A stretch of 64,000 bases of DNA from Methanotrichaceae archaeon (GTDB lineage: Archaea > Halobacteriota > Methanosarcinia > Methanotrichales > Methanotrichaceae), in contig CAWEXU010000010.1 in assembly GCA_963813075.1 (NCBI GenBank), positions 67,648 to 131,647 on the forward strand, given 5' to 3'. Both the position numbers and the translations under genes were made by a program. Position 1 is the stretch's first letter. Each line of letters starts with the position of its first letter. Under the pieces are notes generated by a model that did no database searches, was not told the origin of the DNA, and worked only from the letters and a program-made list of their open reading frames with translations. Positions 1,403 through 31,668 of this stretch are shown piece after piece.

Positions 1403-3273
1403 CTTCTCCCCCTTGACTCTTTTACAACCGCTCTGACCTTTTTGGGGCAGACCTCAAAGCATATCCCGCATCGCATACATTTTGACTGATCGATAACCGA
1501 GAATCCTCTTCTATCCGCATCGATTGCCCCCTGAGGGCAGTTCTCCCGGCACAAGTCGCAGCCGATGCAAGTTCTGTGGTCTATGGTGTAAGATACAAGG
1601 GACTTGCAGGAGAGAGCGGGACATCTTTTCTCTTTGATATGGGCATCGTATTCCTCTCTGAAATAGCGAATGGTGCTCAGGACCGGGTTGACTGCCGTTC
1701 GTCCCAGGGCGCAGAGAGATGCTGTTCTCATCAGTTCTGCGATCTCCTGCAGATTCTCGATATCCGACTCCGTGCCCCGGCCGGATTCTATGGCATCGAG
1801 TATCTCTCGCATTTGCTTGAGCCCCTCCCGGCAGGGAAGGCATTTGCCGCAGGACTCGCTGCAGAGAAAGTCCACAAAGTAGCGGGCCAGGTCGACGGCA
1901 CAGGTATCCTCGTCGATGACGATAATGCTCCCCGAGCCCATCATGGAGCCCAGACGGGTCAGCTCGTCGAAGTCCACCGGTGTTCCCAGAAACCTGGCCG
2001 GGATAATTCCTCCTGATGGCCCACCGGTCTGCACCCCTTTGAGCTTCTTGTTCTCGGGAATTCCTCCCCCAATCTTGTAGATTATATCGGCCAGGGTCAT
2101 TCCCATGGGGACCTCCACCAGACCGGTGTTGTTCACCTTGCCCACCAGGGAGAAGATCTTGGTCCCTTTGCTCTTCTCTGTGCCGATGGAGTTGAACCAT
2201 TCTGCGCCATGTTTTATGATCAAAGGCACATTGGCAAAGGTCTCGACGTTGTTCAGGGCGCTGGGCCGGCCCCAGAGCCCCATCTCGGAGGTGTGGACGT
2301 ACTTCGGCCTGGGTTCGCCCACCTTTCCCTCCAGAGCGTTCATCAGAGCGGTCGACTCTCCGGAGACAAAGGAGCCGGCACCCCGATGAATGGACACATC
2401 AAAATCAAAGCCTGTGCCCAGGATATTCTCGCCCAGCAGGCCATACTCCCGTGCCTGTTGCAGGGCAATAGTCGCGTTCTGGACCGCCAGTGGGTACTCC
2501 ATACGCACATAGATGAAGCCGCTATGCGATCCCATGGCGTAGGCGGCGATGATCAGCCCTTCCAGGACGCTATGGGGATTGCCCTCCATCAGTGCCCGGT
2601 CCATGAAGGCGCCCGGGTCTCCCTCATCGCAGTTGACGATCACATATTTGGGCTCGCCCGGAGCATTTCGGGTCGATTCCCATTTCCGCCCGGTGGGAAA
2701 TCCGCCTCCTCCTCTTCCCCGGAGATTGGATCTCTTCACCTCATCGATCACCTCTTCCGGGGTCATCTTATAGAGAGCTCTGGCCAGGGCACTGTAGCCA
2801 CCCAGCACTATATAATCTTCTATATTTTTAGGATTTATTTTTATGTTATTTTTTATTAGATGCCTCATCTGATGCTTATAAAAGGGAATCTCGCTCTCGA
2901 TGACGGCATTCTCACCCGTTTCGGGATCTTTATAGAGGAGGCGGTCAACCAGATTGCCTTTTAGTATTGTCTCCTCAACTATCTCGGGCACATCACCCGG
3001 CTGGACACCGATATAGTAGACCCCTCTGGGGTAGATCACCATCAGGGTTCCTTTTTCGCAAAATCCAGGGCATCCGGTCTCTTTGATCTCTACCTCCTTT
3101 TCCAGGCCTTTTTGGAGGAGGTATTCATGGAAAGCTTTAACCACCGATCTGGCCCCGAGGGTCAGGCAGCCTGTTCCGGCACAGATTGCGATCAGGGGCT
3201 TTGCAGGATCTCTTCTGGAAAGAATTTCCGATCTGAGCCGTTCGAGCTCTTCAATTGATCTCAGCCTCACCAT
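1399..3273 (-). CDS. nuoF: NuoF/HylB-like NADH-binding flavoprotein subunit with N-terminal thioredoxin-like 2Fe-2S and C-terminal 4Fe-4S domains
   Basis: LRGRGGGGFPTG, NCDEGDPGAFMDR, NNVET, ESCGKCLPCREG and SLCALG motifs; two C-terminal CxxCxxCxxxCP. Confidence 0.93.
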   Translation of the reverse strand: MVRLRSIEELERLRSEILSRRDPAKPLIAICAGTGCLTLGARSVVKAFHEYLLQKGLEKEVEIKETGCPGFCEKGTLMVIYPRGVYYIGVQPGDVPEIVEETILKGNLVDRLLYKDPETGENAVIESEIPFYKHQMRHLIKNNIKINPKNIEDYIVLGGYSALARALYKMTPEEVIDEVKRSNLRGRGGGGFPTGRKWESTRNAPGEPKYVIVNCDEGDPGAFMDRALMEGNPHSVLEGLIIAAYAMGSHSGFIYVRMEYPLAVQNATIALQQAREYGLLGENILGTGFDFDVSIHRGAGSFVSGESTALMNALEGKVGEPRPKYVHTSEMGLWGRPSALNNVETFANVPLIIKHGAEWFNSIGTEKSKGTKIFSLVGKVNNTGLVEVPMGMTLADIIYKIGGGIPENKKLKGVQTGGPSGGIIPARFLGTPVDFDELTRLGSMMGSGSIIVIDEDTCAVDLARYFVDFLCSESCGKCLPCREGLKQMREILDAIESGRGTESDIENLQEIAELMRTASLCALGRTAVNPVLSTIRYFREEYDAHIKEKRCPALSCKSLVSYTIDHRTCIGCDLCRENCPQGAIDADRRGFSVIDQSKCMRCGICFEVCPKKVRAVVKESRGRS

Positions 3274-3412
3274 CCTTCTACACGCCCTGATTCTCGTTGC
3301 ATGCTGTCATTTCCGTTGAGTGCCATGGTTATTTGCTGTGGTCCTGCCAGAATGCGGTGATAGCTAGCAAAGTCCTCGATTCTCACTGTGCCTCATGCTG
3401 ATATTCAACGAT

Positions 3413-3907
3413 TCAGTCGTACTTTTTTAGTATCCTTTCCACTCTGTCCGATGTCACCCGGCCAATGTAATCATCATCCACTACTATTACCGGGCCTATG
3501 GCGCAGCATCCCATGCAGTTGACCCGTTTCAGGGTGAATTTCATGTCCGGGGTTGTCCCGCCCTGTTTTATCTTCAGCTTCGATTCGGTTCTGTCCAGTA
3601 TCGTCTGAGATCCCCGCACCTGGCAGGCAGTGCCCATGCATACGCTTATTTTATGTTTTCCAATGGGCTTCAGGCTTATGGCCTCATAGAAGCTGGCTAT
3701 CCGGTATATCCGGCTTCGGGGAATCTTCAGTCTCTCGGATATCTCTCGGAGGGCATCTTTTGAGATCCAGTTGAACTCGCTTTGCAGGTCTAAAAGAAGC
3801 TGAATTAAAGATCCATCCTGGCCGTTATATCTATCGATTATCTCCTCCAGCCTCTTATGCTCGTTATCCTGCATTTCAACTTCCTCTCTGCCTGAATCTG
3901 CCTTCAT
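3413..3907 (-). CDS. nuoE: NuoE/HylC-like 2Fe-2S subunit
   Basis: ASFY, VCMGTACQVRG and NCMGCCAIGP motifs; directly upstream of the nuoF-like gene. Confidence 0.92.
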   Translation of the reverse strand: MKADSGREEVEMQDNEHKRLEEIIDRYNGQDGSLIQLLLDLQSEFNWISKDALREISERLKIPRSRIYRIASFYEAISLKPIGKHKISVCMGTACQVRGSQTILDRTESKLKIKQGGTTPDMKFTLKRVNCMGCCAIGPVIVVDDDYIGRVTSDRVERILKKYD

Positions 3908-4034
3908 CCCTTCGCCGATATGTCATCACTAAGCATGAATATATACGTTTGCTCGACGGAGCCAAGAGCTATTTCAGATACTAACATCAAAAAATTGAAA
4001 TAATTAGGTGGTTTGGATTTTCTCTTTCAAATGA

Positions 4035-4400
4035 TCATATCGATGAGTCAATTTCATTCATTTTTGTTTCGATATACTCCTTCAATGCCACCGCATTATT
4101 GTGCTGTTCATCTTTAGCTGCATATAGAAAGACCAGATCACTCTCCCTCGCTTTTACGATGAGCTGATCCACGAGCTCGGCCTTCCCGTCAAGCTCTTTG
4201 AAAAATCTCTTTTTGAACTCCTCCCATTTGCCTGGATCATGGCCGAACCATTTCCTCAACTCATCGCTGGGACCTATCTCCTTTTGCCAGAGGTCTACTT
4301 TAGCCGCCTCTTTGGTCATGCCCCTGGGCCAGAGCCTATCCACCAGTATTCTAAAGCCGCTGCCTGGTGCAGCATTATAAATCCTCTCAGTCTTTATCAT
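4035..4400 (-). CDS. DUF488/YeaO family protein
   Basis: RILVDRLWPRG, PSDELRKWFGH and HNNAVAL motifs. Confidence 0.92.
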   Translation of the reverse strand: MIKTERIYNAAPGSGFRILVDRLWPRGMTKEAAKVDLWQKEIGPSDELRKWFGHDPGKWEEFKKRFFKELDGKAELVDQLIVKARESDLVFLYAAKDEQHNNAVALKEYIETKMNEIDSSI

Positions 4401-4489
4401 TGCAGACTCTCATCCGTCATCCATTATCAAGCATCTCCGAGAGCTTTCCGCTTATGTCTTTGCCATACGGGCCCGTACATAGATGCGAT

Positions 4490-4569
4490 CAACTGCCAGA
4501 CATCAGAATAAAATTTCGTAGCGCGCTCAGGCTGGTCTGCATTATCTCGAAGCGTATCACTCTCGGCAT
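4490..4569 (-). pseudogene. 5' remnant of a VOC/glyoxalase family gene
   Basis: Manual translation with frameshifts gives MPRVIRFEI-ADQPERATKFYSDV-WQL, the typical VOC N-terminus; the rest is absent. Confidence 0.55.
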
Positions 4570-4939
4570 TTCGTCACCATTAAATGGTTAGAATAGGCTT
4601 TAGTTGATATATAATTTTCCTGAGCTGAAGTTGCAGAAATCACGGTTCTAAATTTAAATGAAATCTATACTACGAAGATTATTTCTATCGGGCAATATGA
4701 TCAACCAAAAACATATTAACTGATCAATTGAGTATAATATATCAGTTTATCTGCGTTGGGTGCAATTTCGCTGGATTCAATTACAGATGGTGTCTTCGAA
4801 AATAAAATCATGTTGTGAAGCGTGAGGCCAATGAATAAGAAAGGATTCCGGGGCAGTGATGGCTGGGATTAGTCGGACCGCTGATAGCCGCATAAATCCA
4901 CGCCACATTTCAGAATTTATATTTCTGGGGCCATAAAGC

Positions 4940-7900
4940 ATGGATTATATTGATCTCTCTATAAGGGTTCAAGATGACGCAGATGTACTGGCATCATCGG
5001 ATTTGGGTGAATCATATGGCCGGCTCAATCTCAATCCAGATGAAATCCGTCCGATGTTAGATGCCATTGACAAGGATGATACCGATGGAGAGCTCCTCAA
5101 GAAGCTGGGCAAAATCCTGTTTGATGCACTCTTCGACAAGAGTATCTCCAATCATTTAGCTGCTGTTTTGGCCGAAGGGGAAAGCACCGGACGAGGCGTC
5201 CGCTTGCGACTGATCTTTGAAAAGCCCCAGATAGCTGCTATTCCCTGGGAGTTTCTCTATGATGAGAGCACCAATACATTCCTGGCCAATGATCCCAAGA
5301 CGGCACTCTCAAGGTATATCGATGTTCCCTTAAAAAAACAGGATATCAGGCCTGCCAGCATTCCTTTGAAGATGCTCCTGGTCATCTCCAGTCCCAAAAA
5401 CCTTGACCCTCTGGACTCTCTGGGAGAGGAACGGCTAATCAAACAGGCTCTGGAAAAGCACATTAGCTCGGGCCTGATTGAGATCGATGTAATTTCCAAA
5501 GCCACCATTGATGCCGTCTATCAGAGGCTCAGTGACCGGGAGTATAATGTTTTTCATTTCATAGGGCACGGGGTTTTCGAGAATAACAAGGGCCATATTG
5601 CCCTGGTGGACGAGAATGATCGTGCCAAATTATTGGATGATGAGGCCTTTGCAAACCTGTTCCTTGGAAAGAGAGGGCTGGGTTTAGTGATACTGAATTC
5701 CTGTGAAGGAGCCACAACATCATCCGGCCAGGCTTTTAGAGGCATGGCCCCCCGCCTGGTGCAAAGGGGAATACCGGCAGTAATAGCTATGCAGTATACC
5801 ATCCTGGACAGCACCGCCAAGACCTTTGCCGAGGAGTTCTATCGCAGTCTGGCCCGCGGCAATCCGGTTGACCGGGCAGTGCAATCAGCACGAAACCTCA
5901 TTTCCATCAAAGCCAAGCTGGATAATAGAGACTTTGCCACTCCCGTTCTTTTCATGAGGGCCAAGGATGGGGTGATTCTGGATCTCCAAGCCACGCGACC
6001 TGCAGTCTCTCCTCCGCCTGAAAAACTACCGGATATGAAGATATCTGAGAAGGTCTCCGAGGTGGTTTCTGAGAAGGTGCCTGAGAAGGAGACAACGGTG
6101 CCTGAGAAGGATGTGAAGGTATCTACGAAGGTGGCCGAAAAGGGGACAAAGATGGCCGGTAAGGAGACAAAAGACGCCAAAACCCCAATTTACATTCTGG
6201 CTGCTTCGCTAATTATTGTAATCGCTGCCGCTTTATTTTATTTCTTATCTCCTGATTATGTCCAGATCTCCGGGACGGTGAAGGACTGGAATGGCAATCC
6301 TGTAAAAAATGCTGATGTAATGGCACTGCCTTCTGGCATATCGATCCGGACCGATTCCAATGGCTACTTCATTTTATCCGATATACCGGCGAACGGTGTG
6401 GATAAACTGCGAATAAGAAACTATCGCATAGGTTAGTGATGGTGGCAGGGCATATTTAATCACATAGTTTATATACTATGAGATACATATGCCCTGTGTT
6501 CCCCACCATGACAGCAATAGCTACTAATTTCTTAAACCTTCCGTTTGCCCATCAGCTAGTGGATGCATTTAAAGAATACTCAAATGAGTATGAATTCACA
6601 GCGGAAGGTGTATTTCGCAGGATAATACCTCCTGCTTGCTCGCAATGTGGAAAACAGATGTGCCATAATGGCTCAAACAAGTATCAAATTTTAGGTTTGG
6701 CAACTATAAAATTAGGTAGATATCATTGCAGCAAATGCGGCCTGAATCTGCAAGAGGAAAATATATTTTTGGACAATATGAAATTTGAAATCAGCAGAAT
6801 TTTTGCAGGCTTGTATCAAGTGTTGAGAAATCACGATGTCTCGTACGAAGGCATATCGGATGTGATGGATTATCTGATTCCGCAAAGCAGTGACACTATC
6901 TGCAGAAGATTCTCCGACTCTGTTGCCAGCGTTCAGTTGCCTGAAACTTCGCCGATTCAAGTTATCCACTACGATGAGCAGCATCCCAAAGCAGGAAGAT
7001 GCCAGAAGTATCGTTTGACTCTGTTGAACGGAGTGACTCATGAAGTGATTGCGGAAGAGGTTTCAGATAACAAGTCTCAAAAGGCCATTAAACCATTTTT
7101 TGAGAATAATTTAAAAGATGTTATAGAAAAGTTCAACACCAGTATTCATCGTAACCGATCAAGGCAAAGGATATGCAGAGCTGATTGCTGATGTATTCAA
7201 TGGCAACGCAATCCACCAATACTGCATCTTTCATCTGAATCAGAATATAGCAAAAGAATTCTCCAGAAGATGTCAAAATGAAAGACGAGCTTGTAAAATA
7301 CAAATTATTTAATATATTTTATAATCGAGAGGAAGAGCTGAATTATTTGAAGGATCTCTGTGAAGAAGAAGCATCAATTAGCTTTAAAGACAGGAACGAA
7401 GAACATGAATGGCTCAAGAAGGCAAAGATCAGATTTTACGACTTTTTGCATGAACAGGAATTGTCGCGAAGGCGCGCGCACAAGAATTTAGGACTTAGAA
7501 CATATTATGAATCATATGTAATAATGAATGAGTTATTAAATAATGCTCAATTCATTCAGCCCGATTGTTCAGAGACGACTTGATAAGATCCAAAAGGATT
7601 GGAACCATTTCACCGCCTTTCAGCGAGTTGATGATGCACCTGCCACCAATAATGCTATCGAAAACTACTATTCCACCAGCTTGAAAGGCCAAAGCAAGAA
7701 ACAGCTTAGGACCGATCGCGGCATCAATCTCCACATGAAGCTCTCATCGATGAAGCGTTTTGATATGATAGGCAAACCAAAAATCACTTTTCTTGAAGAT
7801 GTGACCAATGAGTTCATTGAGATGCATATCTCTGATGAAAAAAAGAAAGATAAATCGATACTATTCGATAACATTGTATTTCAGCCCACCTCGATAAGAC

Positions 7901-22826: not shown

Positions 22827-25574
22827 TCAAGCCGCGATCTTCTCGATCTTAATCGCGCAGGCCTTGTACTCCGGCGTCTTGGCCTGGGGATCGAGAGCGG
22901 CGTTGGTCAGAAGGTTGGTCAGGACATCCTGGTAATGGAAGGACATGAAGGCCACACCGCGAGATGATTTGTCTGTAACCTTAGCCTTTGTCTTGACCGA
23001 GCCCCTTCTCGAGCTGACCAAGACCATCTCTCCGTCCTCGATCCCAAGCTCCCTGGCATCGGCAGGGCTTATCTCTATTGACTCCTCCGGCCATACCCAC
23101 ATGATACCTCTGGACCTGCGGGTCATGGATCCGCAGTTGTAGTGCTCCCGTCTCCTGCCGGTGGTGAGAATTATAGGATATTCAGCATCCGTCTTTTCTG
23201 CCGGTGGCCTGTGCTCCACGGCATTGAACCTTCCCAGGCCGCAGCTGAACTGTCCAACATGCATCGTCTCTGTGCCCGGGCTATCAATGGTGGGACAGGG
23301 CCACTGCAGCCCGCCGTCATCCAGCCGGTCAAACCTCACTCCTGCGAACATGGGAGCTAATGCGGCGATCTCATCCATGATCTCTGAGGGATGATCGTAT
23401 TCCATCTGGTAGCCCATCCTCTGAGCGATCTGGCAGATCGTCTGCCAGTTCTCCTGGCCACAGAGGGCAGGGATCGCTTTGCGCACCCTTTGAATACGTC
23501 GCTCGCCATTGGTGAATGTCCCGTCGCACTCAGCGAAGCTGGCCGCGGGCAGTATCACGTCCGCATATCCGGTGGTCTCGGTGGGGAATATCTCCTGGAT
23601 GACCACAAACTCCATCTCCTCCAGGGCTTCACGCACCCGGTTGGTATCTGGATCGGTATGAGCAGGATCCTCTCCCAGGATGTAGATTCCTTTTATTCCG
23701 CTCCCTGGCTCGATCATATTGGTGGAGGTCTTGCCGATGTTTGCAGGTAGCTTAACCTTCCAGGCCTCCTCGAACTTTGACCGCACGCCGGTGTCCACTA
23801 CCTGCTGATAGCCTACAATGGCATTGGGAAGAGCTCCCATATCGCAGGCTCCCTGAACATTGTTCTGGCCGCGCAGGGGCATGACGCCAGTGGCAGGCCG
23901 GCCTACGTTGCCGGTGAGCATTGCCAGGTTGCCTAAGGACATCACATTTTGCGTTCCAGTGATGTGTTCGGTCATCCCCAGGCTGTAGATGATCATCGCT
24001 TTATCGACTGAGGCATAGAGCCTGGCCGCCTCAATTATGTCCTCTGCGGGAACGCCGGTTATCTCTGCTGCGCGCTCAGGCGGATAGGCGGCCACGACCT
24101 TCTCCAGCTTTTCGAAACCATCTGTGCGGCTTGAGATGAAGTCCTCGTCCTGCAGGCCTTCCCTGATTATCACATTCATCATCCCGTTCAGCAGAGCGAT
24201 ATTGGTCCCGGGCTTCAGGTTGAGCCAGACCGAGGCCAGGCCGACCAGCTCTATCTTCCTGGGGTCGGCGACTATTATCTTAGCTCCCTTTCTGGCTGCT
24301 TTGATGATCTTCAGGCTGACTATGGGATGGGCTTCAGTGGTGTTGGAGCCGATGATGAAAAGGACATTGGCATCTTCGATCTGGTCGAAGGAGTTGGTAG
24401 CTGCACCGCTGCCAAAGCAAGCGGCAAGGCCGGTCACCGAAGGGGCATGACAGACCCGGGCGCAGTTGTCCACGTTGTTGGTGCCGAAGACTGCTCGGGC
24501 GAGCTTTTGGACCAGGTAGTTCTCCTCATTGGTGCAGCGAGAGGAGGAGAGCGCTCCCAGGGAATCGGGGCCGTATTTGTCTTTGATCTCGCTGAACCTG
24601 CGGGTGACCAGGTCCAGGGCCTCGTCCCAGGAAGCCGGCTCGAATTGGCCGTTCCGCTTTATCAGGGGGGTGGTTATGCGGTCGGGATGGTGGACGATCT
24701 CCTCCAGGCCATAGTGGCCTTTAACGCAGAGCTGTCCCCGGTTTACCGGGCTGTTTTTATCTGGATGGACGGATATGATCTTATCTTCAGATATTCGGAG
24801 TTCCAGGCTGCAGCCCACCCCGCAGTAGGGGCAGATGGTGACCACGGTATTGTCCGGCCGGACCCATTTCTCCGAGCGGTCGAAGAGAGCGCCGGTGGGG
24901 CAGGCATCCACGCATGCGCCGCAGAACTTGCAGTCTGCCTCTTGCAGGGATTCGGGGCCGATCCAGTGGTTGCGGTGAAAGTCCGGATTGGTGGATAAGA
25001 TGCCCAGACCGCGCACCTCTTCGCACATTCTTATGCACCGGCCGCACATGATGCAGAGGTTGTAGTTGCGGTCGAAGAATGGCTCTCTTAAGACCGGCAT
25101 GTCCCGAAAAGAGGTGTGGTATCTGATTTTGTCCAGGCCGACGAATGTGACGGCCTCTTGCAGCTCGCATTGATTGTCGTTAGGGCAGTATTTGCAGCCT
25201 ACTGTTACCGGAAACTTTCGCATGCACTCCCGCAGGTCGGTGCATTCGTCTTTTCTCTCGCAGAACAGGCAGGAGGTGGGGTGGTTGGTGAGGGCGAGGA
25301 GCATCTCCAGGGTGTTTCGCCTCATCTCCTGCAGCTCCTCGGTGCGGGTCCTGACCACCATTCCCTCTGCTGCAGGAGTGTTGCAGGATGTGGGATAGTA
25401 ATCCAGCCCCTCCACAGAGACGATGCACAGCTTGCATGAGCCTATAGGCAACAAGTCCGGGTGGTGGCAAAGAGACGGCACATAAGAGCCCGCAATGCGG
25501 GCAGCATCGAGGATGGTGGACCCCTGGGGGACGGACACCTCTCGATCATCGATAGTGATTTTGATTTCTGACAT
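22827..25574 (-). CDS. fdhF: Formate dehydrogenase alpha subunit with N-terminal NuoG-like Fe-S extension
   Basis: VPSLCHH/GSCKLC, CIMCGRC, CPYCGVGC, DNCARVCHAP, RGQNNVQG and PEYK motifs. Confidence 0.94.
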   Translation of the reverse strand: MSEIKITIDDREVSVPQGSTILDAARIAGSYVPSLCHHPDLLPIGSCKLCIVSVEGLDYYPTSCNTPAAEGMVVRTRTEELQEMRRNTLEMLLALTNHPTSCLFCERKDECTDLRECMRKFPVTVGCKYCPNDNQCELQEAVTFVGLDKIRYHTSFRDMPVLREPFFDRNYNLCIMCGRCIRMCEEVRGLGILSTNPDFHRNHWIGPESLQEADCKFCGACVDACPTGALFDRSEKWVRPDNTVVTICPYCGVGCSLELRISEDKIISVHPDKNSPVNRGQLCVKGHYGLEEIVHHPDRITTPLIKRNGQFEPASWDEALDLVTRRFSEIKDKYGPDSLGALSSSRCTNEENYLVQKLARAVFGTNNVDNCARVCHAPSVTGLAACFGSGAATNSFDQIEDANVLFIIGSNTTEAHPIVSLKIIKAARKGAKIIVADPRKIELVGLASVWLNLKPGTNIALLNGMMNVIIREGLQDEDFISSRTDGFEKLEKVVAAYPPERAAEITGVPAEDIIEAARLYASVDKAMIIYSLGMTEHITGTQNVMSLGNLAMLTGNVGRPATGVMPLRGQNNVQGACDMGALPNAIVGYQQVVDTGVRSKFEEAWKVKLPANIGKTSTNMIEPGSGIKGIYILGEDPAHTDPDTNRVREALEEMEFVVIQEIFPTETTGYADVILPAASFAECDGTFTNGERRIQRVRKAIPALCGQENWQTICQIAQRMGYQMEYDHPSEIMDEIAALAPMFAGVRFDRLDDGGLQWPCPTIDSPGTETMHVGQFSCGLGRFNAVEHRPPAEKTDAEYPIILTTGRRREHYNCGSMTRRSRGIMWVWPEESIEISPADARELGIEDGEMVLVSSRRGSVKTKAKVTDKSSRGVAFMSFHYQDVLTNLLTNAALDPQAKTPEYKACAIKIEKIAA

Positions 25575-25680
25575 GTTCCCAACCGCGCCGGAGTTTGGTA
25601 AGGATCTATTGTATTTGTAGGTTGCTCTGAACACATATTGAACATCTGTGGAGATTGGAATGGTGAGTATATCTGGCAGT

Positions 25681-26033
25681 CTACCAGTTGTCGCTGTTAT
25701 TTTTATCGGCCCGCTTCGGAAAAGTAGATTCGACTTTTTCGGGCGTCCTGTCAGTTTCTATTAGCTTTTCCTCTTCTTCAATTTTTACATCGATCAATCG
25801 AAGGAAAAACCTTTCGGAGAAGCCAGAAATAAAAGCAGCCAGCAGAATTGCACCAAGATTATTTAAATCTATTCCTGAAATAATTTTATATGAAATGAAT
25901 ACGTATATCAGCAATGCAGCAAATGCACCGACTATGGGCTTTAGCTGTGTTCTGATTAAACTCTCTCGATACTTTGAAAGATTGGTTGTGGATCCTCGAC
26001 TTCTGTGGTTTGATTGGATTACAGATAACGGAT
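25681..26033 (-). pseudogene. 5'-truncated membrane protein gene
   Basis: The open frame LSVIQS...LKPIVGAFAALLIYVF...AFISGFSERFF has no start upstream of its TM helices; AT-rich. Confidence 0.55.
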
Positions 26034-26100
26034 TTTAACCACAAAGAGCACAAAGATCACAAAGGCCTCGCAAAGGTTAATCCAGTTCTTGATAGTGGCT

Positions 26101-26370
26101 TTGAGGGCCACCTTTGCCTGCATCCTGAAGGGCCGACTCGCGGCGTCCACTGAAAAGCAGCTCGTGTTAATGGATCGAACTCCCTCAGAATCTGGCCTGA
26201 AAGAAAATGACCGCAAAAGTCATCTCATCGGAGCATCGGCGGCCACGCAGCCAAGAGTGGTCGAGGGGCCAGGTGGTGGATGTGACGCTGTCAGAAGGCG
26301 ATAATAGTGCCATCATACGAGCGGGCAGGCAGATGCACGAATCCTGGCCTGTCTGGAGAATATTAATCAT
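26101..26370 (+). repeat. Copy 1 (partial, rearranged) of the island direct repeat
   Basis: GAAGGGCCGACTCGCGGCGT (26127-26146) is identical to 29164-29183; CCAGGTGGTGGATGTGACGCTG (26269-26290) is identical to 31388-31409. Confidence 0.85.
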
Positions 26371-26539
26371 TTTATAGCCCGCTGGGGCCAGGCTGCAATT
26401 CTGCTGCTCACCACCAGGGCAGTGCGGCGCAAATTGCGAGAGCGCTGGAATGCCCTAATTTATTGTCTTCCCATTCATCGGATCTCGTATTTGCTGCCAG
26501 CCGGACATAACGGCAGACGATCAGTGGCTTTCAGGCTAT

Positions 26540-26712
26540 TCAATAAGAAAAGAAAACTGATTGCGGGATATGAGCAAGGATGCAGACCGAGATCGTTCAT
26601 CCCATGCATAATGATCATAGATCTTGGTCCAAATGATGGCATAGCTATGGTGAGAATTGAATTTATAAGTGTTCATAGGGAGCACTTGGACCGGAAATTT
26701 ATTATAGAAAGA
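26540..26712 (+). pseudogene. cas2: Probable cas2 remnant (type I-G/I-U-like C-terminus)
   Basis: TEIVH...IMIIDLGPNDGIAMVRIEFISVHREHLDRKFII resembles the Cas2 C-terminus; lies directly upstream of the leader; N-terminal YDI motif absent. Confidence 0.45.
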
Positions 26713-26799
26713 TCGCTGATAAAAGGCAACGTGGTTCCAGGAGGTCCTTTGGGTCTGAAGCGCCCAGTAATACGAAAACTCCTGTGAAGACATACGCAC

Positions 26800-26960
26800 A
26801 ATTATTAAAACTATAAAGAGTATCGACGATCCGCGCTAAATCAGCGCATAGCGATATTAGATTAATAAAATCTCTTGAATCTGAGAAATATTTGGCAGTC
26901 AGGTCGATCCGCGAATAACGGCGTTATTTCGACAGCTGCAACAGCCCTAAAATGGCTGCC
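26800..26960 (+). promoter_or_regulatory. CRISPR leader
   Basis: AT-rich non-coding stretch abutting repeat 1; the repeat's ATTGAAAC 3' end implies + strand transcription. Confidence 0.65.
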
Positions 26961-27351
26961 CTATCCATTTCTGAGAAGAAGTGGCCCCATTGAAACGCAA
27001 CTTGAGATGTTCACACATTCCTTCTGCCTCTATCCATTTCTGAGAAGAAGTGGCCCCATTGAAACAATGGGTTGATTAATATCTACCCTTATCTATGCGG
27101 TCCTATCCATTTCTGAGAAGAAGTGGCCCCATTGAAACTATCGTTCTTATTTCCTGGGGCTGCCGATGTGACAACCCTATCCATTTCTGAGAAGTGGCCC
27201 CATTGAAACAAGAGTTCATTTCAGTTTGCATTTATCTCACCTTCACTATCCATTTCTGAGAAGAAGTGGCCCCATTGAAACGCCCATGAGCCCAGGCAGG
27301 GGCTCACACGTGACGGATGGAAAACCAGATATTTTAATCCGTCCATGTTAA

Positions 27352-27502
27352 GTCTGATATGGGCAGTGAAGGCTGACAAGTTTATGGGACACTTGATCCC
27401 GCGATTGAAACCAGCCAATACCCCTCGAATACGGGACTGCGTCTTAGAACGCGTATGGGAAATTATCCCCAATAAGGGAATGATCATCTGCCCATATCAG
27501 GC
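27352..27502 (+). ncRNA. Candidate IS110 bridge RNA in the left non-coding end
   Basis: 13-bp perfect closing stem CTGATATGGGCAG/CTGCCCATATCAG enclosing stem-internal-loop-hairpin units; position upstream of the IS110 recombinase. Confidence 0.65.
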
Positions 27503-27512
27503 AGAGACATAT

Positions 27513-28832
27513 ATGAAAAAACGAAGAGAAAGAGTTTGCGGTGCAGATGTCCATAAAGATCTGATCGTTGCCACAATAGCAGGCGACGAAGTGCCGCCGA
27601 TTCGAGAGAATTTTGGGACAACAAAATCCGAACTTGATAGATTTAGAAGCTGGCTTGCAGCTAACAAATGCGAACAGGTTGCATTCGAAGCTACTGGAGT
27701 CTATTGGATCCCGATTTATGATGCTCTGAGCCGAACCATAGATACCATTGTTGCCAATCCTCTGCAGATAAAGTCCATTCCAAATGACAAATCAGATTCA
27801 AAAGATTCAAAGCATATTGCAACTCTGTGTTTGAATAATCAAATCAAGAGATCTCGGGTTTTTTGCGATGAAGACCGAGAACTCAGGAACCTAACGCGAG
27901 CCAGAGCAGGATATGTCAAGACGCGAACTCAGTTCAAGAATCGGATACACAAATATCTCTCATCAAATGGCGTTAAACTCAGCTCTTCTATGGACGATAT
28001 ATTCTGCAAATCTGGAAATCATATCATAAGAGGTCTGGCTGAAGACAACCCTACCGAAGAGATCCTAAAAGGCATACCCTGCGGAAAGATCAGGAAAAAA
28101 CAAGACGAGATCAGATCAGCACTTGCCAATGAACTGAGTGATACAAATAGAATGCTGATAAGGGATGCTCTCGAAATCATGGACAATGTCGAATCCAAAA
28201 TAGAGAAGACAAGTTTTGAGGTTCTGAAAAAGATTCAAAAGAAGAGCACGGATTTGGCTATTGTTATGTCCATCCCTGGAATCGCATTTATCTCAGGTTC
28301 AGTCATTCTGTCAGAGATCGGAGACTACAGAGATTTTCAGACCCCTGACCAACTGGCGAAATGGTGTGGCCTCAATCCCGGTGAAAATGAATCTGCCGGC
28401 AAAAAGAGGAAATGCGGAATCACAAAACGCGGTTCCAAGTATATCCGAGTTGTACTTGTCGAGGCTGCCCAGACCATAGCTAATATGAAAAATACAACGC
28501 TGTCCAGATTCTACAAGAGGCTGAGCAAAAAGAAGGAGCATAATGTGGCAATAGTTGCCGTGGCCAGGAAGCTCATCTGTCTCATTTATCATCTTCTGAT
28601 CAACCAGGAGTTCTACCAAGAGGTTGGTTGCAGAAAGAGGAGAACGGGTCGAAATGAGTCCTGCCATGAACCTTCTTTGAAGGTGGAGCATCTGACAGAT
28701 AAGGTAGCTGCAATTGTGGATGCCTTTTATGGAATGAGCGAAAGTAACCGGAAGAAGGCCCTCATGCGAGTGCTTGAAGATATTTCTGTGAATAAGCCCG
28801 ACCGGAAAAGGTCATCTGATGGAGGTGGATAA
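27513..28832 (+). CDS. IS110-family DEDD recombinase/transposase
   Basis: GADVHK, FEATG and KSDSKDS (DEDD); SIPGI, ENESAGK (catalytic Ser region), RGSKYIR and AVARKL; intact ORF. Confidence 0.96.
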   Translation: MKKRRERVCGADVHKDLIVATIAGDEVPPIRENFGTTKSELDRFRSWLAANKCEQVAFEATGVYWIPIYDALSRTIDTIVANPLQIKSIPNDKSDSKDSKHIATLCLNNQIKRSRVFCDEDRELRNLTRARAGYVKTRTQFKNRIHKYLSSNGVKLSSSMDDIFCKSGNHIIRGLAEDNPTEEILKGIPCGKIRKKQDEIRSALANELSDTNRMLIRDALEIMDNVESKIEKTSFEVLKKIQKKSTDLAIVMSIPGIAFISGSVILSEIGDYRDFQTPDQLAKWCGLNPGENESAGKKRKCGITKRGSKYIRVVLVEAAQTIANMKNTTLSRFYKRLSKKKEHNVAIVAVARKLICLIYHLLINQEFYQEVGCRKRRTGRNESCHEPSLKVEHLTDKVAAIVDAFYGMSESNRKKALMRVLEDISVNKPDRKRSSDGGG

Positions 28833-29088
28833 CTCGTCTCTTGTATTTGATTTTTTTGGTTTTCCATGGGAAACTCTGTCAGGTTACTCGGATACTGGTT
28901 CTCTATCCATTTCTGAGAAGAAGTGGCCCCATTGAAACTATCCATTTCTGAGAAGAAGTGGCCCCGTGCCCGCCGGGAGAATACTATTCTAATTATTTAA
29001 AGCATGATCCAGTTATCTTTATCCGTCTATCTCATGTTCTCGTCTCATCCTACATACTGAAAATATTTGTTTTATTATTTCTCAAATC

Positions 29089-29195
29089 CAGCAACGGCTA
29101 TGCCACGATCGTATCCAAGCCTCCCCGGCGTTGAGGGGACCAGGGCATTAGCGCGGGAGGCCCGAAGGGCCGACTCGCGGCGTGCACTAAAAAAA
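29089..29195 (+). repeat. Copy 2 of the island direct repeat (structured core)
   Basis: GTATCCAAGCCTCCCCGGCGTTGAGGGGACCAGGGCATTAGCGCGGGAGGCCCGAAGGGCCGACTCGCGGCG. Confidence 0.9.
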
Positions 29196-29393
29196 TAGTC
29201 TGTGTAGATCGATTTTAGCCCTTATAACAGCCTGTAATTGAGAACTTAATTATGCTGAAATTCGAGATTTTTCGATCCCCACTCAAAGAAGTTCAGACTT
29301 TTCATCCACACCCGCCTGGAGAATCTTTCCTTTAATATATCACAATCCAAAACCATCGACGAAGCGAATACAGCCCTCAAAAAAAATACCGGA

Positions 29394-31272
29394 TCATTCC
29401 GCTAAAGTTCTCATCACCTTCGCCTCCGCCTTCACCGGCACGGGATAGAGCATCTGGGACCCTATCCTCTCCATGATCTCCTTAAGCCTTGCTGCATACT
29501 CCTCCGCTCGATCCTCCGGAACCTCCAGGATGATCTCATCGTGGATGGAGCCTATCATCCTCGCTTCCTCATCCAACAGCTTCTCATAGACCTCGGCCAT
29601 CACCAGCTTGATCAGGTCTGCGCCCGTCCCCTGGCAGGGGGTATTGTACATCTGGAACTTGCTGGCGGTGATCCCTGATCCAAAGCGCGGCCAGATCCGC
29701 CTTCTCCCGAGGACCGTTCTGGTGGCTGTCAGCGGCAGGGAGAAGAACCCCCGCACGCAGTTATGGAAGTGATGCTGTGCAGTGTAGCTCATCTGGGATA
29801 GCTGCATCTTCTGCCACTCTCTTATTCCCGGATAGCTGCAGAAGAACTTCTCCATGCGCTCTTCCGCCTCATCCAGGCAGATGAACTCGCCATAGTCGGA
29901 TAGGATGCGCCACTGCAGGGTCCTGGCCGATCCTCCGTAGATGAGCAGGAAGTTCATGGCCTTGGCCGCCTGCCTCTGCGAATCTGTCACCTCTTCCAGG
30001 GGAGTTCCGCTGATCCGGGAAGCAGTCAGGCGGTGCAGGTCGACGCCGTTTATAAAGGCCTGCTGCATCGCCTCATCCCCGGAAAGACGGGCCATTATGC
30101 GCAGCTCTATATTGGAGAAGTCGGCCTTGACATACCTCTTTCCTTCCGCCGGGCGAAACAGCCCCCTTATGGCTGGGGCATCCTCTCCCCGGCGGGGGAT
30201 CTGCTGAGCATTGGGATGACGGGAGCTGATTCGTCCGGTTGAGGCGGGAATCTGGAAGTACTGAGGATGGACCCTGCCGTCCAGAGGATGAACCCTCTCC
30301 AGCCATTTGTTCAGAAACAGCAGATTGTAGGAGAGGTGCCTGTAGCGCATAAGAGCCTCGGCGAAGGCGCAGCCTGCAGCGGCAAGGCTCCTCAAGACCT
30401 CGGCTTTGGTGCTGGCCGGTCTGTAGCCCCTCTTCTGCCAGAAATGCCATGACATCCTCCTGCCGGTCGGGATTCAGGTAATAGCAGAGCCTTTTGCCGT
30501 CATAGGAGACGGTGACAAATCCTTTCCTCTCTGCCTCATCCTGCATCCTCCCCACCAGGTCGAAGACTTCATCCTCCTCCTGGGCAAGGAGCTCCTTTGC
30601 TCCAAGGGAGTCCAGACCAATCCCCGATATCTCCATCTCCGCCAGGGCAACGGCAGCCCGAAACTCCAGGTCTGCTATCTTCTGCAGATCGTTTTTGGCT
30701 ATTAGCTCCGCCAGAATATCATGAAGTGGCAAAAGTACCATCGCATCGATGGCAGGGCCTGAATCCTTATCCAGAATGATTCCGAGATGCCTTTCCGCCA
30801 GTGAGGCCAGGCTGTGATCGACAAGCCTTTTCGTCCAGGGATTTTTTGGATTGCCGGATGGGGTCAGATAGTAGTACCCGGACCAGCACATATGGGAGGC
30901 GAGCATGAGGTCGAAGGTGCGGCAGGAGTTCAGCTTTCGACCGGCAATTGCCCTGATGAATGAGAGCACGGATTTCGAGTCGTACAGAACCTTCGTGATC
31001 CTCCCGTTCTCCAGCAGCCCGGCCAGGTCGCTGAGGACTCTCTCCATAATCACAGGTCGGTCGGCAATATCGGCTATATAAACTGAACTGTTGCTGGGAT
31101 GATTGGGAAGAGCGAGAATGATTCTCTGGATCTTGTGGCTCAGAGGATCGGGGCCGGTGGCAACGAAATTCAGGCCAAAGTATCCAGCCCGTTCTATCTC
31201 TTCTAATATGGATTCCCATTCGGGCAGAGACTGAACTGTTGTGACGGAATGGGGCGTGAGGCGATCTATCAT
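29394..31272 (-). CDS. polA: Family A DNA polymerase (degenerate 3'-5' exo domain plus polymerase domain), with one +1 frameshift at ~30438
   Basis: STGRISS..PNAQQIPR, ADFSNIELR (motif A), RQAAKAMNFLLIYG (motif B) and IHDEII (motif C); removing one base joins DVMAFL to QKRGY. Confidence 0.9.
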
Positions 31273-31377
31273 ATAAACCTATAATTGTGATGAAGCACTT
31301 CTAAAAACTTTCTGAAGATCTCCAAGTAGAACTCTTTACCCCAAGGACGGTGTTGATGACCTAGCACAGCCAGTACT

Positions 31378-31668
31378 GGCAGGTGGACCAGGTGGTGGAT
31401 GTGACGCTGCCTATGGAGAAGTAGTGGCAAAATACAGCTCGATTTGCTGGGCAAACTTGCAATTCGACCGGGCCCGCCTGGAGAATACTAGCTCCAGTAT
31501 ATCACAACCCATCAACGGCCAGCTTCGATTGTATCCAAGCCTCCCCAGCGCTGAGGGGGCCCAGGGCATTAGCGCGGGAGGACAAAAGGGCCGACTCGCG
31601 GCGCCCAATGAAAAGCAGCTCGCATGAATAGATCAAATTCCCTCTGAATCAGCCCTGAAAAAATGATT
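31378..31668 (+). repeat. Copy 3 (longest) of the island direct repeat
   Basis: Aligns with 32790-33012, 29089-29195 and 26101-26370. Confidence 0.9.

Follow-up and report, generated by a model that had tools for sequence, protein, structure and literature searches.

An archaeal IS110-family element inserted at a CRISPR repeat end, and its left-end RNA as the probable guide to that site

The element, its boundaries and its array

The stretch of DNA analysed here (the window, 64,000 nucleotides (nt) of contig CAWEXU010000010.1, assembly GCA_963813075.1, from a Methanotrichaceae archaeon) contains an orphan CRISPR array, which is interrupted by an insertion element of the IS110 family. Bridge-RNA elements select their sites by base-pairing, and the subject of this analysis is the site chosen by this element and the RNA encoded in its left end. 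To our knowledge, the natural guide targets of bridge-RNA elements, and the reasons for them, have been little explored, especially in archaea. The array and the element comprise the following features:

26961..28965 (+): orphan CRISPR array of six 36-nt repeats and a truncated terminal copy, from a repeat-family search
26961-96, 27030-65, 27103-38, 27177-209, 27246-81, 28903-38 (+): the six repeats
27246..27281 (+): repeat 5; the left half of the target, together with the crossover region, is formed by its last 8 nt (ATTGAAAC, 27274-27281)
27282..28874 (+): IS110-family element, 1593 base pairs (bp), the exact stretch common to three copies, between repeats 5 and 6
27513..28832 (+): recombinase gene, 439 amino acids (aa), with a DEDD RuvC-like domain and a Tnp domain; the only open reading frame (ORF) of the element, intact
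28864..28874 (+): right end of the element, CCATGGGAAAC (left donor and crossover region)
28875..28902 (+): remainder of the interrupted spacer, 28 nt, short
28939-65 (+): truncated repeat, adjoining repeat 6 with no spacer between them

The CRISPR repeat is 36 nt long (CTATCCATTTCTGAGAAGAAGTGGCCCCATTGAAAC), and repeat 4 (27177-27209) has a 3-nt deletion. A putative AT-rich leader lies on the left of the array. No cas genes were found among the 18 ORFs scanned with Pfam across 12283-42488.

The start of the element at 27282 directly abuts the terminal ATTGAAAC of repeat 5, and its right end reads ...TTTTCCATGGGAAAC with 28874 as the last base; GAAAC is thus present at both junctions. The ends carry a 6-nt inverted repeat, CATGGG / CCCATG. 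These limits, the two GAAAC copies and the inverted repeat had been described in an original prediction for this locus, as had an intact IS110 DEDD recombinase between repeats 5 and 6, and all of them were found. In the whole-genome search (2.71 Mb, 31 contigs), two further full copies were detected on contig 7, with identities of 100% and 97%. The three copies share exactly 27282-28874, and divergence begins immediately outside these limits. All three follow the ATTGAAAC of a repeat, end in ...TTTTCCATGGGAAAC, and have different spacers on both sides. Because the common limits are exact, the alternative boundary at CCATG is wrong and an insertion inside the spacer, which had also been considered, is excluded. 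In the copies read, each junction carries the same short core (GAAAC), outside which the target site is not duplicated, and the position of the junction may be assigned anywhere inside the GAAAC common to the two sides. Judging from the relatives L004 and L030, the exact core dinucleotide is probably AA.

The 439-aa ORF matches both Pfam domains of the family, namely DEDD_Tnp_IS110 (PF01548, profile positions 1-151 of 155, 1e-21) and Transposase_20 (PF02371, positions 3-86 of 87, 2e-25), and it is intact in all eight further copies that were translated. Its distant match to the IS621 recombinase chain 8wt6_A (E 1e-7) extends over the Tnp domain. In this alignment E-S-A of the query stands opposite E-S-G of the chain, that is, the serine is kept and the glycine is replaced by alanine, where the aligned chain residues, counted as S243-G244, are taken as the published S241-G242, the position of the catalytic serine of the IS621 Tnp domain, with an offset of two residues.

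Insertion sites, guide segments and the left-end RNA

Among 105 genomes of the family, a DNA search gave matches in 67, and in the loci from this and further searches 35 distinct left junctions of the element, of left-end fragments or of a miniature form were read in Methanothrix-family relatives. The flank is exactly ATTGAAAC at 29 of these junctions and differs by one letter at the remaining six; 18 of the 35 lie in CRISPR repeats (15 by recurrence of the flank within the locus and three at contig ends by eye). Metagenomes were scanned with the exact first 38 nt of the element, the flank not being part of the pattern. The scan returned 104 stretches, of which 80 loci were fetched, giving 66 distinct flanks. 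Exact ATTGAAAC precedes the element in 57 of them and a sequence differing by one or two letters in nine. With respect to location, 47 of the 66 are in CRISPR repeats (44 by recurrence and three by eye), one is in the element's own guide DNA and 18 are elsewhere. About one third to one half of the related insertions are at non-CRISPR ATTGAAAC sites. The bacterial matches of an 18-mer scan lacked the left end of the element, barring one short contig, and were treated as chance or mis-binning.

The repeats hit belong to at least four unrelated families, which have nothing but the terminal 8-mer in common. These are CTATCC...CCCCATTGAAAC with its variants, GTTGCAGCGAAC...GGGATTGAAAC, TCCGAGGGCGAG...AAGGATTGAAAC, and ATTGCAGAGCC...GGGAATTGAAAC. 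At the other loci where the next repeat could be read, the spacer to the right of GAAAC is 35-39 nt long, and the insertion is therefore at the exact boundary between repeat and spacer. The array insertions are always co-oriented with the array. In a DNA run, the right end is followed by another 36-nt spacer and a repeat, and a repeat with the element is found behind another spacer; these joints are further independent array insertions. The genome itself contains 119 ATTGAAAC sites, of which 93 are in CRISPR repeats, three in elements and 23 elsewhere.

The left non-coding end of the element also contains ATTGAAAC, at 27404-27411, as the original prediction had noted. It had regarded this match as more than chance, and the junction counts given above bear this out. 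The features of the left end are as follows:

27282..27355 (+): terminal left-end part (right-donor side) with two hairpins in the fold prediction; its first 44 nt are kept in an 84-bp miniature
27330..27337 (+): TATA-like box TATTTTAA, a putative archaeal promoter; the RNA 5' ends lie about 22-28 nt downstream of it
27356..27498 (+): bridge RNA, 143 nt; the outer stem pairs 27356-68 with 27485-98 and encloses two guide loops
27376..27385 (+): candidate right target guide in the 5' strand of the target loop; GUUU can pair with AAAC of the top strand, weak here
27404..27411 (+): left target guide ATTGAAAC, in the unpaired 3' strand of the target loop; closing stem 27371-75 / 27412-16
27455..27462 (+): left donor guide ATGGGAAA, after hairpin 27439-52; same sequence as the right end of the element

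In relatives, the segment at the position of the left target guide reads CCCTAAAC, GCTAAAAC, TTTAAAAC, GCGGAAAC, CAAAAAAC, AAACAAAC, CACAAAGA and others, and it matches the left flank of the respective element. For 19 distinct guides, an average of 7.21 of 8 positions agree with the own flank, as compared with 4.40 in shuffled pairings, and none of 10,000 shuffles reaches the observed value. When only the four variable guide positions are considered, the identity is 3.47 of 4 versus 1.11 shuffled. The donor guide likewise tracks the right end in L029, L034 and L004 (ATGGGAAA, ATGTGAAA, ATGCGAAA, ATGTGAAG). L004 (G000:C8:9118-9341 with its flanks) is a further IS110 relative in this genome, a distant one, with a guide, CACAAAGA, that is equal to its left flank; the 5' strand of its target loop, the candidate right guide, is perfectly complementary to 7 nt of the right flank. 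Among 51 distinct right flanks, the last letter of GAAAC is C in 44 and position +1 is a pyrimidine in 41. If the 5' strand were the right target guide in the present element, TTGTC would be expected after AAAC, and the 51 right flanks do not exhibit it. The donor loop was found to hold no convincing uninterrupted stretch complementary to the left-end terminus that might act as a right donor guide, and RNAalifold pairs part of the donor-loop strand with the left donor guide.

The non-coding left end is 231 nt long, lies upstream of the gene, and has a fold z-score of -4.5. The 21 aligned left ends, which range from close copies to relatives about 68% identical, display a common fold consisting of the outer stem, a loop closed by GGCNG/CNGCC that contains a hairpin, the invariant hairpin at 27439-52, and a terminal hairpin. 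The paired cells amount to 96.8% in this alignment versus 22-47% in slid controls. Rfam returned no family at E up to 1 in 25000-31000, barring a chance match to sR53 outside the element.

Contigs from two metatranscriptome runs of one study cover 27350-27500. In these RNA contigs, Illumina adapter sequence stands directly before 27353-61 and directly behind 27498, which correspond to the two ends of the outer stem. The word depth of the RNA contigs is 1,700-5,300 over the RNA and 25-130 over the ORF, contig depth being a poor measure; no variant is listed in these contigs for 27404-11. The discrete RNA begins about 74 nt within the element, downstream of the TATA-like box, which would serve as an internal promoter. 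Placement of the element under the leader promoter, as had been suggested for this locus, is therefore not needed. Cas6 cleavage of the upstream repeat as the source of the RNA 5' end is likewise unsupported, in view of the little contig cover over 27222-27308, which proves nothing by itself, and of the adapter-bounded ends at 27353-61.

Related forms of the element and the surroundings of the array

In the 84-bp miniature, some 20 nt of filler separate the initial 44 nt of the left end from the final 20 nt of the right end. This form is found in related genomes (L046-L051) and in metagenomes (L171, L172, L183, L193, L202, L205, L216, L224 and L235), inserted at the same (A)TTGAAAC sites, CRISPR repeats included, and is presumably moved in trans by the protein and RNA of the full element. 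Two degenerate remnants of it are present in this genome (L005, G000:C31:103304-350, and L006, G000:C13:45186-238).

Of the four copies in one related array (L010/L039, G077:C12:108730-115789), one is cut short because a further copy has inserted exactly after the guide DNA inside it. Nesting of this kind is also seen in a metagenome contig (L174), where a copy stands exactly behind the internal ATTGAAAC of another copy. The element cannot distinguish its own guide gene from a target, and these self-insertions are a natural confirmation of a short, left-sided specificity. In a chimeric array (L009, G080:C5:11782-16375), 21 repeats of one family lie to the left of the element, and on its right stand a spacer of 35 nt and the last part of an array whose repeats belong to a different family, which suggests recombination between element copies in different arrays.

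A sister element with the guide GGCTAAAAC occurs at loci L019, L059, L072, L085, L095, L096, L120 and L130, with at least seven copies in one genome. Each of its copies follows one and the same intergenic motif, about 20 nt in length, which ends in CTTCTGGGGCTAAAAC and is non-CRISPR.

With respect to the surroundings, the truncated repeat at 28939-65 and the sequence beyond it are also found at the end of another array (L002). Dispersed repeats of short families (23-43 nt, 70-91% alike) flank the array on both sides (26124-26365, 28964-29328, 31367-31490). On the minus strand, at 29394-31272, a 353-aa ORF encodes a family A DNA polymerase (PF00476, 3.6e-78) and overlaps in another frame an upstream 399-aa ORF with no Pfam match; the pair may represent one gene that is split or has suffered a frameshift. 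Such a polymerase is an unusual neighbour for an archaeal CRISPR array.

Explanations and relation to known systems

The comparisons of copies, flanks, guides and left-end RNA point very probably to an active IS110-family element of Methanothrix-type archaea, whose left-end bridge RNA guides insertion to ATTGAAAC and hence to CRISPR repeat ends. In the mechanism proposed from these comparisons, the recombinase would insert the circularised element into any DNA in which a pyrimidine follows ATTGAAAC, with strand exchange inside the A-run of GAAAC, which would account for the GAAAC at both junctions. The site would be selected by the target loop (ATTGAAAC, 27404-11), and the second loop (ATGGGAAA, 27455-62) matches the element's own right end. 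Because ATTGAAAC is the conserved 3' end of many repeats, and these are most of the copies of the 8-mer in these genomes, the element and its miniature land mainly at the junctions of repeats and spacers. The original prediction of RNA guidance to such junctions thus holds up well: the flanks are almost always ATTGAAAC, mostly in arrays, and the loop segment co-varies with the flank. Flanks devoid of ATTGAAAC and not enriched in arrays, which would have been the contrary outcome, were not seen when the copies and homologues were tabulated.

Whether arrays are themselves the selected niche is a separate question. It is possible, if less than probable, that this is an RNA-guided transposon lineage specialised on arrays through the 8-nt word that encodes the 5' handle of the CRISPR RNA (crRNA), a word that is portable across repeat families, and that the lineage spreads with its miniature and joins arrays to one another. 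The same mechanism may equally have no such niche, in which case an 8-9-nt word merely happens to sit mostly in repeats and the association with arrays is a by-product; this too is tenable, and we hold it no more than tentatively. Since 93 of the 119 ATTGAAAC sites are repeats, no CRISPR-specific recognition is needed for the array bias, and by availability the occurrence of three of three copies in arrays has a probability of about 0.5. Moreover, non-CRISPR ATTGAAAC sites are used at 17 of the 35 genome junctions and 18 of the 66 metagenome junctions, and sister elements aim at other words, one of them at a non-CRISPR intergenic repeat. A mere by-product is less easily reconciled, however, with a guide that is invariant across the clade (79-100% element identity) while the neighbouring loop letters vary, and with the preference of the relatives, too, for multi-copy words, an indication that selection favours guides for sites that are repeated and harmless. 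Array insertions are also probably under-counted, because assemblies break at arrays. In this genome, the array bias is no larger than a specificity of 8-9 nt would by itself produce.

The target is short and the 8-mer is present in the element as DNA, so recognition of ATTGAAAC by the recombinase protein alone, with the left-end 8-mer as a coincidence or a binding site, has to be considered. It is very unlikely, because changes in the loop segment go with changes in the flank across 19 guides, the second segment tracks the right end, and both segments lie in unpaired strands of a conserved RNA fold; the protein family is, according to passages of PMC11208160, RNA-guided. Even less credible is the arrival of the copies without targeted transposition, whether through repeat-to-repeat recombination or duplication or through their uptake by Cas1-Cas2 as oversized spacers. 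Arrays do recombine at repeats, and at L009 two repeat families are joined at the element. This explanation is nevertheless already contradicted by the different spacers on both sides of each copy, and it does not fit the four unrelated repeat families and the many non-CRISPR sites with the same 8-mer, the spacer (rather than a duplicated repeat) that follows the element, or a position that is not leader-proximal.

Several observations weigh against RNA-guided insertion at repeat ends as outlined above, or limit it. The caveat about the 28-nt spacer remainder, raised in the original prediction, is real: two identical copies leave short spacers, of 28 nt (28875-28902) and 29-30 nt (L002, G000:C7), while of the other 86 spacers of this repeat family, at positions free of the element, one is 28 nt, one is 29 nt and the rest are 32-48 nt. 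The repeat that follows the L002 copy is without its first C, and a small deletion linked to the insertion is a possible explanation of the short spacers of these identical copies. When metagenome contigs were scanned for exact matches to the 28-nt spacer remainder, as a sign of an empty allele, 0 stretches were returned. In the contigs of four runs there was neither an array without the element nor a joint of the right end to the left end (circle); these contigs also list joints of 27285 to 29112 and of 27376 to 27483, with sides of 21-24 letters. Compensatory changes are seen at only three pairs, because most of the stems never vary. The RNA evidence consists of contigs of one study in which those of other organisms are summed, and relatives may contribute to it. 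The array bias corresponds to site availability, with 93 of the 116 free sites in repeats, so that an 8-9-nt specificity alone predicts about 80% array insertions; an array preference selected beyond that level would be an additional assumption. The 51 right flanks show no conservation beyond the pyrimidine at +1. The right-hand guides of the element are candidates only, and the specificity of 8-9 nt is below that of IS621. Finally, the guides are on the opposite loop strands as compared with IS621 as described in parts of PMC11208158, and for this reason the IS621 geometry serves as an analogy only.

By that analogy, the element would work like IS621, with base-pairing of the same kind and a permuted RNA layout. 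According to passages of PMC11208160 and PMC11208158, IS621 and the IS110 bridge-RNA elements likewise combine a DEDD and a Tnp domain in the recombinase and derive the RNA from the left end upstream of the gene. The same passages describe two RNA loops, one corresponding to the target and the other to the element's own ends, with left guides that have the sequence of the top strand, as well as a short crossover at both junctions and a short inverted repeat around the joined ends. In contrast to IS621, the element is archaeal, its recombinase is 439 aa rather than 328 aa long and only distantly similar (E 1e-7 over the Tnp domain), and a long outer stem encloses the whole RNA. Its left guides are located 3' of the loop hairpins, while those of IS621 are 5' of them in the part of PMC11208158 concerned, and the IS621 order of stem, left guide, stem-loop and right guide is found in neither loop here. 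The natural target information is about 8-9 nt, and the target is a conserved CRISPR repeat end.

Other systems resemble the element in part. The cyanobacterial Tn7-like transposons treated in PMC11837452 are, in the passages concerned, also minimal and cargo-free and occur repeatedly in CRISPR arrays, which are proposed there to be a harmless site. In these elements, which belong to another superfamily, the repeat is read by a TnsD/TniQ protein, whereas here unrelated repeat families are hit because the element's own RNA guide matches the repeat end. Within the range of those passages, this protein-guided family is the nearest prior idea. ISPpu9 and ISPpu10, IS110 elements that target repetitive extragenic palindromic (REP) sequences, share the use of a multi-copy non-coding host repeat as target, as described in parts of PMC12288879 and 10.64898/2026.03.19.712850; they differ in that the repeat here is part of adaptive immune memory and insertion is at the exact boundary of repeat and spacer. 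For ISC1229, an IS110 element of Saccharolobus, a motif equal to the 3' part of CRISPR repeats is described in passages of PMC10883916 in the 3' flank and inside the ORF; these motifs are bound by the CRISPR-repeat-binding protein Cbp1, and the authors take them as a protein binding site. As a lead only, the motifs might represent similar guide DNA or remnants of targets. In the portions of the literature covered, no account was found of CRISPR repeats as the target of an IS110 or bridge-RNA element; the search did not extend to supplements, for instance the target tables in PMC11208160, which could hold cases.

A natural guide aimed at one word common to many type I/III repeats would mean that the RNA of a transposon homes into an RNA-guided immune memory. 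The CRISPR-associated transposons differ in that they borrow crRNAs, and the Tn7-like elements of cyanobacteria in that a protein reads the repeat. The host might even read a pseudo-crRNA, composed of the upstream repeat and the left end of the element, as self, because the copies and the joined ends would be preceded by GAAAC, the repeat handle, and not by a protospacer-adjacent motif (PAM); this is purely conjectural. The finding raises the questions of whether such insertions silence the spacers downstream and cause recombination between arrays, and of whether an 8-9-nt specificity with permuted loops could make a usable archaeal bridge recombinase. If the proposed guidance is true, the repeat ends would provide this family with a multi-copy, harmless landing pad that is valid across unrelated repeat families, and its insertions would reshuffle arrays.

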